Assembly (NCBI GenBank): GCA_965231765.1
Contig: OZ246887.1
Coordinates: 998,486 to 1,062,485 of the forward strand
DNA length: 64,000 nucleotides
Reading direction: 5' to 3'
Source: Candidatus Binatia bacterium
GTDB taxonomy: Bacteria > Desulfobacterota > Binatia > Bin18
Shown in pieces: positions 36,561-40,549 of this stretch (its first letter is position 1; each line of letters starts with the position of its first letter). The position numbers and the translations under genes are program-made. The notes beneath the pieces were generated by a model. That model was not told where the DNA came from, ran no database searches, and saw only the letters and a list, made by a program, of their open reading frames with translations.

Positions 36561-37523
36561 ATGCAGCAAGTCGAAGAAAACGCTTTCCCGTTGGTTAGTC
36601 TATACTTCAAGCGAAGAGAAGGCCTACTCGCGGAGCTAGATCAGTGTAGCGAGCCAGCCGAAATAGCTAAACGCGTGAACAGCTTCGTCCGCGAGCTTGA
36701 ACGCCCATATACAGACTTAGTAAACGTTACCGACCAACAAGCTCGTCTTGTTCATCACACGCTCGGTATAATCGCTACCGCTGTCGGGGCGCTTTCCGCC
36801 GTTTCTGCTGCTGCCTCATTACCTACCATAAGAGATGGTGACTCGTTAACGAAAATGAACAACGGCTTAATAAAACGATTCCTGCTAAAAGTATTTCCGG
36901 CGGTACGTCACTGGATAGAATCGTCCCCGGCGGTGCGTTATCTGCTGCTTATCGCGGCCGCTTGCGTTGCGTCGGTTGTCCTCGTGTTGCTTAGCAGCCC
37001 CTCAATAACCGCGTTAATTTTGCTGTTTGCTATTGGGGCGATGGCAGTCGCATTGGCTTCATCTGTCCGATACGAAGACGCTCTCGCTTCACATTCCCCC
37101 TCCCCGCAAGAACCACAGGTTACGTTCGCTTTTGCTCTGAATAGCATTGATGGGACACTTTCACGCGCCCTGCGCGCGGCAGATGACCTTCTCGCCGTCG
37201 CCGCCCATGAGTCGAGTCAGAATGCAGGCGCTCCGGCGCTTAATCCAGACCGAATGCTTGAGCTGCTTCAAGACCTCGGCTCTCATAAGATTACCAGGAG
37301 CCCCGATAAGACGATAGACGACTTCGCTAAAGATAGCGTCCGGCTCCTGTACGCTGCTGGAATTACGCTTGTCGATTACAGTCCCGACCAAGCCCAATTT
37401 TTTGAAAAGCAGCCAGCAGGCATTTCTGAGCAGCGTACCCTGCTACCCGCTCTTGTCAGTGAAGACGGGAAGCTAGTGCGCCCAGGCACTATCCTCGTAC
37501 CTGTCGCCACACGTCCCAACTAA
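36561..37523 (+). CDS. membrane protein with GrpE-like C-terminal domain (tentative)
   Basis: Two hydrophobic helices (YLLLIAAACVASVVLVLL, ALILLFAIGAMAVALA). The C-terminus LLYAAGITLVDYSPDQ..LVSEDGKLVRPGTILVPV resembles the GrpE beta-domain pattern. Confidence 0.6.
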   Translation: MQQVEENAFPLVSLYFKRREGLLAELDQCSEPAEIAKRVNSFVRELERPYTDLVNVTDQQARLVHHTLGIIATAVGALSAVSAAASLPTIRDGDSLTKMNNGLIKRFLLKVFPAVRHWIESSPAVRYLLLIAAACVASVVLVLLSSPSITALILLFAIGAMAVALASSVRYEDALASHSPSPQEPQVTFAFALNSIDGTLSRALRAADDLLAVAAHESSQNAGAPALNPDRMLELLQDLGSHKITRSPDKTIDDFAKDSVRLLYAAGITLVDYSPDQAQFFEKQPAGISEQRTLLPALVSEDGKLVRPGTILVPVATRPN

Positions 37524-37535
37524 CATAGTCAACGC

Positions 37536-39560
37536 ATGACAAGAAGGAGGAACCTGGTGGCCATCTCTGAAACTTTGCAGCAATTACAATATCCTCAGCT
37601 TTTGCCGGAGACAAAAGACATCATCGGGTTTGATCTTGGTCATGGTGACACTTCGGTGAGTCGCGTTTCGGCGACCGGGGGAGATAGCCAGAAATTAGAG
37701 GTCGTCACAGGCTACAAAGTTATCCCGAGCGTTGTAGGAACTGAAAACGAAACGCCCATCGTTGGGAAACGTGCTCTTACTGATCCCGAAGTTATACAGC
37801 CCCGACAACAATTCAAGAGTCCAGATATTAGCAAACCAGAAGTTGGAGGTCCGCTCCGCTCATTTGTTTCTGGCGTCATGAAAAGTCTGAGAAGCAACAA
37901 CAGCACAGTCCTTTTCGACTCCACTACCCTCATTGTGTTCGGTCATCCTTCGGCCTGGTCCAACGAACAGAGGCTGAGCTATGGGAGACTGCTTAAAGGA
38001 CAGATCTCAGGGCCGCAGTTTATGCTCGTTCCTGAGTCCCGAGCTGCCTTTTTGACCATGCGGGAAGAAAAGGAGCTGAACCAAAACGATATCCACGAAC
38101 CAATCCTCATTGTAGATTTTGGCTCCTCCACCACCGATTTCACGTTTGTTCACGATCTCCGTCCAGGAGAATTACCCATTGGCAAGCAATATCCACTGGG
38201 AGCCTCTCGCATTGAGCAGCAATTGGTTCAGCATGCCCTCTCTACCTCTCCGCATCGTGCAAAGATCGAGGCGTGGTGGAAGCAGGCTCCCAGCGACTAC
38301 CATCGAACCGTTTTTAAATTTCGGGAAGCCAAAGAGGATTTCTTCAAAGAAGAAGCCATATGGCGTAAAGGCCGCCCAATGGAAGTGATAGGTCCCAGCT
38401 ACCGCATTAGTGACACATCGAAGATTAGGCTTGAGATAGATCTAACCGCTGAAGATTTTGACGCCGCTATCACTACTCCGTTGAGTGAGTTGGGCGACCC
38501 TCCAATATCGTGGCGTGACCGGCTTTGCACGGACTTAGGGGAAGCCTCACGAACGCTTCATGGAAAGTATGGAATCCAACCTAAGATTGTAATCCTCACT
38601 GGAGGCGCTGCCCGTATGAACTTCGTCCAGGAAGTCGCTAGAGAGGTATTCAGCCAATCTGCGGTACGTAAGGCTCCCGAACCTGAGTACGCGATCTCTG
38701 TAGGATTAGCCCATGCCGGATCTATTCGCTACCGCGCCTCGGCACTTCTCGACGAAATCAAAACGCTCATTAACTCCGGTGAGGTCCGAGATGTAATCGG
38801 CAAACAAATGGATGAATTCGCCAAGGCCATTGCTCGCGCGGTTGCTGATAGATTCACAGAACGGTTCGTTATTCCCGAAGTTATGGCCTGGAGAAACTCC
38901 GGCCATGGGACATTACAGGATGTCACTATCCGTATCTCGACGCGTCTTGAGAGCTGGCTAAAATCAGAAGATGGACGTCGAAAGATTTTTACTGCTCTTA
39001 ATCCATGGTACCAGCAGATCGAATTGATGCTTCATGGTATTACCGCTCCGATATGTCTCAAATACAAACTTGATGCGGACTCTCTCGATATCCCGAAATC
39101 AGACTATGACCTAAAGAGACTTGATATTGATCCAAGCGAATTGACCGGGCTCTCTGGATTAATGAGCGCGATGCTAGCAACAATTAGTTTTGTGATGGGA
39201 ACTATTCTGTTTGGAACTGGTACGGCAATATTACTCCCAACTGGTCCCTTGGCGCCGATTATAGCCGGGGCACTTTTGTGGATTCTTGGGGAGAGTGTGA
39301 AAGAGGAGTTAATGCGGTGGATTCCGGCCTCCATATTAGAAAACAGATTGCGGAAGAAAGCGGATGAGAATGAGGAAGAACTCCGTAAAGAGGTCTATCT
39401 TAGCATTATCGGTGGTTACGAGGACTACGACGAAGAAGATGCGGCTAGCAAGGAGAGGTTGGCGAGGCAGAATCGAGAGGAGATTATAGAAGGGATAACT
39501 AGCGGATTCGAATCCGCCTTGAGGCAGCGGGCGGAGGACGCCAGCGTGCTCATTAGGTGA
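37536..39560 (+). CDS. Hsp70/actin-fold ATPase with C-terminal transmembrane anchor and acidic coiled tail
   Basis: IIGFDLGHGDTS (phosphate 1), VPESRAAF, IVDFGSSTTDFTF (phosphate 2), LTGGAARMNFVQEVAREVF (adenosine). TM segment at ..LMSAMLATISFVMGTILFGTG..IIAGALLWILG. An alternative GTG start at 37557 has a better RBS. Confidence 0.8.
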   Translation: MTRRRNLVAISETLQQLQYPQLLPETKDIIGFDLGHGDTSVSRVSATGGDSQKLEVVTGYKVIPSVVGTENETPIVGKRALTDPEVIQPRQQFKSPDISKPEVGGPLRSFVSGVMKSLRSNNSTVLFDSTTLIVFGHPSAWSNEQRLSYGRLLKGQISGPQFMLVPESRAAFLTMREEKELNQNDIHEPILIVDFGSSTTDFTFVHDLRPGELPIGKQYPLGASRIEQQLVQHALSTSPHRAKIEAWWKQAPSDYHRTVFKFREAKEDFFKEEAIWRKGRPMEVIGPSYRISDTSKIRLEIDLTAEDFDAAITTPLSELGDPPISWRDRLCTDLGEASRTLHGKYGIQPKIVILTGGAARMNFVQEVAREVFSQSAVRKAPEPEYAISVGLAHAGSIRYRASALLDEIKTLINSGEVRDVIGKQMDEFAKAIARAVADRFTERFVIPEVMAWRNSGHGTLQDVTIRISTRLESWLKSEDGRRKIFTALNPWYQQIELMLHGITAPICLKYKLDADSLDIPKSDYDLKRLDIDPSELTGLSGLMSAMLATISFVMGTILFGTGTAILLPTGPLAPIIAGALLWILGESVKEELMRWIPASILENRLRKKADENEEELRKEVYLSIIGGYEDYDEEDAASKERLARQNREEIIEGITSGFESALRQRAEDASVLIR

Positions 39561-39590
39561 GACCTTTGTTTTCTGACAGGAGCAATCAGC

Positions 39591-40073
39591 ATGGAAAGAG
39601 CTGAATTTCAACAGGCAAAATCGTTCATCTACCGCGACATCGAACGCGACATCCAACTCGCCGTAGTCTCTGAGAATGACAATAACGCGAGCCGACTTCG
39701 TGAATTTGGCATTCATTCTGGCGGTGGCAACTTTCTCGCCGCGTTGGGACTGCTCTGCTACACCGAATTCGCAGGCAAACTCAAATACAATCACCTTCAT
39801 GCTTCGCAGAATTTCAATCGCTTCTTCGACGAACTAGGACAACTATATTCCGATTTTCGCCAAGAGAACGACGTTTACGATATCTTTCGATGTGGCTTAG
39901 CCCACGAATATTACGTCAAGCAAACCTGTACCATTGCAATGTTTGGCGGTTCTGGTCAGGCTGGAATCGGGAGCAATGACGTTGGGCGTTACTATTTCAT
40001 TGTAGAGCGCTACTTTCGCGACTTCCAACTTGCGTTCGATAAACTTGAACAAGACTTATTTCCTTCCATATGA
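39591..40073 (+). CDS. hypothetical protein with Rx4H (HEPN-like) motif
   Basis: 160 aa with [18 protein letters not shown] motif at 39888-39905. Confidence 0.6.
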
Positions 40074-40549
40074 GGGCCATAACCATGGGACTTGTACACG
40101 CGACTATCCAGCTATCGAATCCTCGTGAACTAGCTCTCCAAGCGCTTGAAGTGGATGCGCTCGTTGATACCGGCGCAGTGACGCTGTGTATTCCCGAACA
40201 TGTTTCCGTCCAACTCAAACTCTCTGCTATTGAACAACGCGAGGTGATAACAGCGGACGGGAGAGCCCATCTTGTTCCCTATGTTGGTCCCATTCAGGTG
40301 AAGTTTGAGAATCGGACGTGTTTTACCGGCGTGCTTGTTCTGGGGGATAGTATCTTGATGGGAGCCGTCCCACTGGAGGATATGGATCTTGTGATTCATC
40401 CGCGGGAGCGAAAACTGACGGTTAATCCACTCAGTCCTAACATTCCCTCTGCAATTGTGAAGCCTGTTTCGGTCCTCCACTCTCGTTTCTCACACTATCC
40501 TGAAAAGCAAACGTGGGAGGCCGGGACGAAACCGACCCCCCACGTGTAA
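40070..40549 (+). CDS. retropepsin-like (clan AA) aspartic protease
   Basis: [13 protein letters not shown] (DTG at 40166-40174) and [20 protein letters not shown] overlap with the upstream gene. Confidence 0.8.

Follow-up and report, generated by a model that had tools for sequence, protein, structure and literature searches.

Hsp70 proteins are among the best-studied molecular machines and, to our knowledge, have always been described as a nucleotide-binding domain (NBD) coupled to a peptide-binding domain. The locus described here lies in a 64,000-nucleotide stretch of the Candidatus Binatia contig OZ246887.1 (positions 998,486 to 1,062,485; hereafter the window, whose own numbering is used throughout). 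There, four consecutive same-strand genes follow hisB, and the second of them, gene 2, encodes a Hsp70-type NBD with an intact catalytic set, coupled to a predicted membrane hairpin; gene 1 encodes the membrane protein that is its dedicated partner. Genes 1 and 2 form a widespread pair without described function in the literature, where searches found no paper on it, and the pair is to be annotated as a unit; genes 3 and 4 are not to be taken as its effectors.

The pair resembles the canonical Hsp70 (DnaK)/GrpE system in the Hsp70-type NBD of gene 2, with its full catalytic set, and in the small partner gene directly upstream, whose C-terminal domain aligns co-linearly, though only with a weak score, with the β-domain region of GrpE. 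In contrast, gene 2 lacks a substrate-binding domain, shows no match extending into the interdomain linker and has no DnaJ partner. The pair also differs in that both proteins display putative membrane hairpins, in that GrpE models miss the partner, and in its patchy accessory distribution.

Hsp70 proteins in unusual settings have been reported from three sources. The GAP1-N2/DO-GTPase conflict systems display an HSP70 plus GrpE theme, including proteins consisting of the HSP70 domain only; they are membrane-proximal and over-represented in multicellular bacteria, actinobacteria among them (Kaur et al. 2020, PMC7159879). The likeness to the present pair lies in the use of Hsp70 ATPases outside classical proteostasis, some without a peptide-binding domain, together with GrpE. 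In contrast, the hallmarks of those systems are DO-GTPase and GAP1 genes, accompanied by FNIII- or DnaJ-fused parts, none of which was seen in the window or in the sampled loci; no GTPase gene lies beside the block between 32 and 45 kb of the window, although no search with DO-GTPase or GAP1 models was made. In cyanobacteria, a 'chaperone clade' of dynamin-like proteins has a DnaK-domain gene downstream (Jilly et al. 2018, PMC5827413). A similar genomic linkage of a dynamin-like GTPase gene with a Hsp70-like gene is seen at five Streptomyces loci described below, a likeness of context alone, whereas no dynamin-like gene occurs in the window or in the sampled cyanobacterial loci. Finally, CnuD of the CoCoNuT systems is a Hsp70-like protein with an NBD and a substrate-binding domain, displays degenerate ATPase motifs and depends on McrBC-type partners (PMC11090510). 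The likeness here is the recruitment of Hsp70-like proteins into defence-type operons, whereas the motifs of gene 2 are intact, and it has neither a substrate-binding domain nor McrBC neighbours.

Pairing and distribution of genes 1 and 2

Gene neighbourhoods were collected from nine places found by exact look-up and from 80 genomes found with the family alignment, and pairing was scored at 89 gene-2 loci (L numbers below) with profiles of each gene family on six-frame open reading frames (ORFs). At 87 of the 89 loci the gene that directly precedes the gene-2 homologue, in the same orientation, is a homologue of gene 1, and the two are typically spaced by 14–24 nt or overlap by 4–8 nt. The two unpaired loci are L022, on a short contig, and L019 of Beggiatoa, where an M20 peptidase gene is found upstream instead. 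Paired loci span at least eight phyla or classes, among them Binatia, Cyanobacteria, Actinobacteria, Gammaproteobacteria, Bacteroidota, Acidobacteria and Planctomycetes. Clustering of all neighbours of the 89 loci revealed no further neighbour family shared across taxa, the next largest clusters representing Nostoc-specific synteny. Gene 2 has hundreds of homologues of 635–690 residues and a relative is encoded in at least 521 of about 186,000 species-representative genomes, the pair being especially common in filamentous cyanobacteria and Streptomyces.

Proteins 87–90% identical in named MAGs place the organism in Candidatus Binatia. In Binatia the module occupies two different chromosomal sites. 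In the window it follows the genes prmC-murA-hisD-hisB, while in sister Binatia (L001/L013 and L012) it is located between SnoaL and nitroreductase genes on one side and an acyl-CoA dehydrogenase gene on the other, without genes 3 and 4. Comparison with these other-locus copies (L001, L012) by blastn gave homology, at about 86% identity, exactly from 36499 to 39560, that is, from the start of a palindrome to the stop codon of gene 2. Because the pairing is conserved and the homology has these limits, the unit comprises a leader and genes 1 and 2. Only L002 and L092, near-identical to the window (96–99% throughout), have genes 3 and 4 together with the pair; the 85 other paired loci lack both. 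Three independent elements make up the region: the two-gene module (leader with genes 1 and 2), a solo gene 3 and the gene 4 protease. They are arranged as follows.

36499–36560, + strand: module leader, with an inverted repeat and the gene-1 Shine-Dalgarno sequence GGAGA; starts at the edge of blastn homology
36561–37523, + strand: gene 1, 320 residues, from the ORF list
37536–39560, + strand: gene 2, 674 residues from the first ATG or 667 from GTG 37557
38697–39536, + strand: recombination tract, the post-NBD half of gene 2, from comparison of the window with L002
39591–40073, + strand: gene 3, 160 residues
40070–40549, + strand: gene 4, 159 residues, or 154 from an alternative ATG at 40085

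The ATPase and its membrane partner

Gene 2 comprises an NBD (residues ~25–395), a helical domain (~396–535), a hydrophobic hairpin (536–588; nt 39141–39299) and a tail (589–674) that is helical with an acidic stretch. When a profile of 34 family members was compared with the PDB, the DnaK NBD was matched with E = 7.8e-14 over the whole NBD, and the NBDs of BiP and Hsc70 were also matched; the best 60 of 116 PDB matches are all Hsp70s. Even where the DnaK chain is full-length, no alignment runs past the end of the NBD, and no similarity to the Hsp70 substrate-binding domain or to its conserved hydrophobic linker was detected with the profile on these chains. Single-sequence scans of gene 2 returned weak Hsp70, FtsA and actin-like matches only, and Pfam HSP70 covers only residues 352–397. 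The residues invariant in 34 diverse members are D33, K94, E167, D194, G196, T199 and G356-G357, which correspond in DnaK to the motifs GIDLG (D33), VKR (K94), NEPTAA (E167), DLGGGTFD (D194, G196 and T199) and VGGSTRM (G356-G357). Since these invariant residues pair with the catalytic motifs of DnaK, gene 2 is expected to be active as an ATPase. The helical domain, of about 140 residues, displays two invariant tryptophans (W452 and W491) and a nearly invariant cysteine (C507). The hairpin that follows contains Gly and Pro and, judging by its hydropathy, should insert in the cytoplasmic membrane; alignment reveals that this architecture is conserved across the gene-2 family. A reading made earlier from the letters of the window alone, here termed the sequence-only reading, had described gene 2 as a non-housekeeping, membrane-tethered ATPase with Hsp70/actin-fold motifs, no recognisable substrate-binding domain and, in its place, a helical region, a membrane segment and an acidic tail. 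This description is supported by the family profile, the invariant residues and the hydropathy of the hairpin, and all the peptide motifs that it quoted are found in the translations.

In gene 1 a helical region at the N-terminus is followed by a hydrophobic stretch of 51 residues (121–171; nt 36921–37073) and by a C-terminal domain (~195–320; nt 37143–37520). The hydrophobic stretch corresponds by hydropathy to two predicted transmembrane helices, as had been proposed, connected by a very short loop. Because the loop is so short, both ends of the protein should reside on one side of the membrane, predicted to be the cytoplasmic side, the C-terminal domain included. The family has 71 representatives after 50% clustering of 1.84 billion proteins, nearly all of 270–360 residues, the outliers being a few fragments and two much longer multi-domain proteins; its members are named solely 'hypothetical protein'. 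The most conserved columns are located in the C-terminal domain and comprise F281, P285, T293, P296, A297 and G309.

Comparison of the window with L002, which carries the block at the same hisB locus, revealed an exchange confined to the membrane half of gene 2. Nucleotide identity is 98–100% in every 150-nt bin between 36000 and 40586, except at 38697–39536, where it drops to 39–75%. At the protein level identity is 99% for gene 1 and 99–100% for the NBD of gene 2, while four successive post-NBD segments display 63, 72, 62 and 43% identity; the post-NBD half of the window is nearer to the other-locus paralogue P0004 (80–92%). The divergent tract begins at the end of the NBD and finishes just before the stop codon of gene 2, and it is a clean recombination tract. 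Since gene 1 is 99% identical and the post-NBD half has been exchanged, the same gene-1 allele appears to work with two very different membrane halves. The swap would fit gene 1 acting on the NBD and not on the membrane half. General hypervariability of the C-terminal half of gene 2 was also considered and rejected, since among the 87 pairs its divergence tracks that of the NBD and the mosaic is unique to the lineage of the window and L002. In the 5.4-Mb relative (L092 5966–7970) two overlapping ORFs, of 159 and 526 residues, are called in place of a single gene-2 homologue, reflecting either a frameshifted pseudogene or a long-read assembly error.

Proposed mechanism and rival explanations

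The reading that we favour, to which we assign a probability of about 0.6, is that genes 1 and 2 constitute an independent two-gene module encoding a membrane Hsp70-type machine, with gene 1 controlling the NBD and with an output at the membrane. The two proteins would form a complex at the membrane, as their synteny suggests, in which the C-terminal domain of gene 1 would bind the NBD of gene 2 and control its nucleotide cycle in the manner of GrpE. ATP binding and hydrolysis would then be relayed through the helical domain to the membrane hairpins, and the machine would thereby alter the membrane, or an assembly bound to it, instead of folding soluble clients. The most likely role would be accessory membrane surveillance or remodelling, in envelope stress or in defence. 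This reading is favoured by the conserved pairing, the sharp limits of the module homology and the G+C content of the block, the Hsp70 match of the NBD and the membrane segments kept across the family, and also by the accessory contexts given below (plasmid, CRISPR and integrase, BREX, dynamin-like and trypsin-TPR neighbours). The action of gene 1 on the NBD would agree with the exchanged post-NBD half and with the conserved C-terminal domain of gene 1, for which GrpE is the best, though weak, profile match. Should gene 1 turn out to be an exchange factor of the GrpE type, this would be a case of the nucleotide cycle of Hsp70 re-used for work on or in membranes, and the pair would provide a tractable two-gene system for study.

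A number of observations weigh against this reading, and several of them concern the relationship of gene 1 with GrpE. The sequence-only reading had assigned to gene 2 its own exchange factor, on account of a GrpE β-domain likeness at the C-terminus of gene 1. The dedicated, strictly co-occurring membrane partner stands, whereas no GrpE model recognises it. When 59 family members were scanned against Pfam (PF01025) and NCBIfam, no GrpE was found at E <= 10 and the matches were transmembrane-driven noise only (DUF4131, SLATT_1, PspM). Gene-1 profiles of eight and of 59 sequences retrieved no GrpE chain from the PDB, returning designed helical bundles and transmembrane proteins, and a GrpE hidden Markov model built from three sequences had no match among all ORFs of the loci. 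An AlphaFold2 (AF2) model of gene 1, from an alignment of nine sequences, was unusable, with a mean predicted local distance difference test (pLDDT) of 43.9 and a predicted template modelling score (pTM) of 0.28. Direct alignment with hhalign used 13 GrpE sequences (E. coli, Geobacillus and human verified against PDB chains, ten from annotated records). It placed gene-1 residues 257–314 co-linear with GrpE 128–193, a span from the last helix of the bundle through the β-domain to the C-terminus, with P values of 0.0025–0.009 and a probability of 4–12%. GrpE was the best of 29 such comparisons, with P = 0.0025 versus 0.018 for the best of 28 unrelated families and 0.56 for reversed GrpE, and an alternative register aligned TLRPALV with LRPAMV. 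The GrpE resemblance of gene 1 is, on these alignments, weak.

Further points on the same side concern the two proteins and their distribution. The interaction between gene 1 and gene 2 is predicted from synteny only. The hydrophobicity of the gene-2 hairpin is moderate (1.65–1.9), and the hairpin could be re-entrant or peripheral rather than a pair of transmembrane helices. No J-domain gene is conserved beside the pair in the 89 loci, though a J-protein may be encoded farther away. No relative of gene 2 was found in 2.9 million viral contigs (IMG/VR), and none of gene 3 either. The C-terminal swap is a single event, without a family-wide pattern among the 87 pairs. In Nostocales the pair is in stable synteny over 18 loci, which looks like the vertical inheritance of a cellular function and not like a mobile defence gene. 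Finally, defence-model matches were few when 131 genes neighbouring 29 diverse loci were scanned with PADLOC, without a control set: LeoA was matched three times, mad2 and LeoBC twice each and others once each, the LeoA and LeoBC matches being dynamin-like neighbours in Streptomyces.

A more elaborate proposal, which we hold only tentatively, is that the pair is an undescribed membrane Hsp70 machine whose membrane-anchored exchange factor derives from GrpE and which gates or remodels a membrane, in an immune or abortive response or as the partner of a dynamin, with an exchangeable post-NBD membrane cassette setting its specificity.

A conflict-system reading is possible. One form of it, that the pair alone mediates anti-phage abortive infection, with a phage cue shifting the state of the ATPase and four hydrophobic helices opening or disrupting the membrane, seems to us unlikely. 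The compactness of the unit and the variety of its contexts would be consistent with such a role: a Calothrix plasmid carries one copy of the pair (L068), at L009 it is found beside CRISPR and integrase genes, and in a sister Binatia genome a BrxC/PglY (BREX) gene (L001, 1–3660) is located about 5 kb upstream of the other-locus pair. Its occupation of different loci in sister genomes, a G+C content below most of its flanks (0.46–0.55 in the block versus 0.53–0.58 immediately upstream and 0.52–0.57 in most of the downstream flank) and the exchange of the membrane half between near-identical genomes also argue for it. Similarly, the pair stands beside dynamin-like GTPase genes (Dynamin_N 3e-23) at five Streptomyces loci, whose products account for the LeoA and LeoBC matches, and trypsin-TPR proteins of about 1100 residues are found nearby in seven actinobacterial loci. 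A tandem AAA ATPase is also among the actinobacterial neighbours, and both types of neighbour resemble published conflict architectures (PMC7159879). Four gene-1 relatives match the SLATT two-transmembrane model with E = 0.005, which is far below any threshold of significance. In contrast, neither protein matches a PADLOC model: the PADLOC-DB 2.0 models gave no match in genes 1–3, and gene 4 reached only E = 0.013 with the candidate model PDC-M52B. Most neighbourhoods of the pair comprise ordinary housekeeping or metabolic genes, and both the stable synteny in Nostocales and the single occurrence of the cassette swap are difficult to accommodate. As had been stated from the window alone, no characterised system with this composition can be named, either from PADLOC or from the literature.

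The arrangement of the Streptomyces GTPase genes differs between loci. At L069 (8044–12706) and L056 (4181–9962) they are paired, after gene 2 and on the same strand, and at L069 the dynamin-like GTPases of 697 and 520 residues are followed by a 338-residue protein; at L021, L061 and L079 they are located upstream. The possibility that these GTPases are DO-GTPase or GAP1 proteins was rejected, as they gave strong Dynamin_N matches instead.

It is improbable that the pair is a membrane-protein chaperone, in which the helical domain of gene 2 would replace the substrate-binding domain and hold membrane clients while gene 1 served as a tethered exchange factor. The intact catalytic NBD, the dedicated partner with its weakly GrpE-like C-terminus, the anchoring of both proteins predicted from hydropathy and the vertical stability in Nostocales would all suit such a chaperone. 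In contrast, the module has no J-domain protein, neither substrate-binding domain nor interdomain linker is matched, and a core proteostasis factor would not usually be so patchy and accessory in its distribution.

The sequence-only reading had joined the pair with genes 3 and 4 in a single conflict cassette, in which the membrane ATPase and its exchange factor would control a HEPN RNase (gene 3) and a retropepsin-like protease (gene 4). We consider this very improbable. The tight same-strand spacing, the presence of all four genes together in L002 and L092, the conserved Rx4H and DTG motifs and the retropepsin-like gene of L003 and L004, some 400 nt downstream of the pair, were all compatible with it. 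However, genes 3 and 4 are missing from the 85 other paired loci and from the module at the other Binatia locus, and homology stops at the gene-2 stop codon. Gene-3 homologues have no conserved partner in 76 metagenome loci, where neither a protease nor a gene-1 or gene-2 homologue neighbours them, and in two genomes they are located beside unrelated toxin-antitoxin-type genes. The L003 protease is encoded on the opposite strand and belongs to a different subfamily, and a HEPN identity of gene 3 is unsupported by fold or profile searches. The linkage to RNase and protease effectors is not supported.

Least probable of all is a membrane-anchored filament system of actin-like type, comparable to ParM, FtsA or MamK, with gene 2 polymerising and gene 1 anchoring or nucleating the filament, for which there are the common fold superfamily, weak matches to the BeeR actin-like family (1.1e-5), FtsA and a PRTRC ParM-like protein, one UniRef relative named 'ParM/StbA domain-containing' and the fact that FtsA is also membrane-tethered, at its C-terminus, but the best 60 of the 116 PDB matches include no actin, ParM or MreB and the matched residues are the Hsp70 catalytic set.

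Genes 3 and 4, start codons and flanking sequence

Gene 3 is a solo gene of a widespread uncharacterised family, with 423 homologues at 50–65% identity in Planctomycetes, Chloroflexi, Nitrospirae, Deltaproteobacteria and Bacteroidetes. In 40 diverse homologues D16, R19, N47, Y57-T58-E59, R100, C101, H105 and C113 are invariant and C56 nearly so; R100 and H105 lie in FRCGLAHEY, and a further 17-residue motif is conserved. The Rx4H motif proposed from the window alone thus has both of its residues invariant, while the HEPN fold that it implied found no significant fold or Pfam match. The AF2 model is confident (pLDDT 95), and it returned nothing from the PDB at E <= 0.001, the best match being Csx1 (6qzt; E = 0.79, probability 0.06, template modelling score 0.18). 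Foldseek comparison with BFVD gave no significant match, the best viral entry being an unnamed protein with E = 0.035, and a Pfam scan of 40 members gave nothing below E = 0.009 and no HEPN among the matches. HEPN status is a lead; C56, C101, H105 and C113 could instead make the 'Rx4H' part of a Cys/His metal site. Variants of about 220 residues (P0193, P0139 and P0155) display an N-terminal extension of about 60 residues (…YDFAGGVRGKH…). At L011 (4715–5663) one such variant comes after a BrnT toxin gene, whose end it overlaps, and stands where an antitoxin would be expected. A 683-residue protein of Rosistilla encoded beside a gene-3 homologue was considered as a gene-2 relative and found to be unrelated.

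Gene 4 is an ordinary member of the clan AA aspartic proteases of NCBIfam TIGR03698 (E = 1.4e-22, 80.1 bits versus a cut-off of 57.35), with the DTG at residues 33–35 and a Pfam Asp_protease_2 match at 6e-5, and it is not linked to the pair elsewhere. Its assignment as a retropepsin-like DTG protease had been correct. L003 and L004, where a retropepsin-like gene is also found downstream of the pair, represent one gammaproteobacterial lineage. The L003 protease was rejected as a recurring partner and is regarded as a coincidence, since besides its opposite strand it has a hydrophobic, signal-peptide-like N-terminus and is missed by phmmer with gene 4. A hidden Markov model of gene 4 and the L003 and L004 proteases revealed no more retropepsin neighbours in 91 + 80 loci.

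All four same-strand ORFs are present in the ORF list at the positions first given for them, downstream of hisD-hisB and separated from hisB by a spacer of 381 nt. The spacings originally noted, 12 nt, 30 nt and a 4-nt ATGA overlap, hold for the first possible starts, whereas genes 2 and 4 probably start later. For gene 2 the true start is most likely GTG 37557, because an AAGGAGG Shine-Dalgarno sequence lies 7 nt before it and the relatives are all called with 667 residues, beginning MAISET; the gap between genes 1 and 2 would then be 33 nt. Similarly, gene 4 is called in relatives from ATG 40085 (154 residues), after GAGGG. This is probably its start in the window, leaving a gap of 11 nt and no overlap.

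The perfect 14-bp hairpin noted upstream of gene 1 is confirmed as an inverted repeat with arms at 36501–36514 and 36521–36534, a 6-nt loop and a distance of 27 nt to the gene-1 ATG. It was ruled out as an intrinsic terminator because it has no T-tail, and it was also rejected as a conserved RNA structure, since the other-locus copies keep the left arm while the right arm has diverged and the stem cannot form. In L092 (4789–4979, compared with 36380–36570 of the window) a 14-nt partial duplication of the left arm (GAGAGAGTGATTAGT) is located just upstream of the hairpin. The spacer between hisB and gene 1 also contains a 42-residue ORF (MVRSSEERNRRLDAREARQAEQSQALTEILTELAVLRRAAQD; 36347–36475, + strand), called as a gene in L002 (8790–8918) and L092 (4742–4870). 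As the homology of the module begins at 36499, this ORF falls outside it. At the other end of the block, a terminator-like hairpin with 14 pairs (ten G-C) and a T-rich tail is located at 40511–40545 (- strand), across the 3' end of gene 4. The hairpin would serve the convergent luciferase-like monooxygenase gene (40583–41656, - strand).

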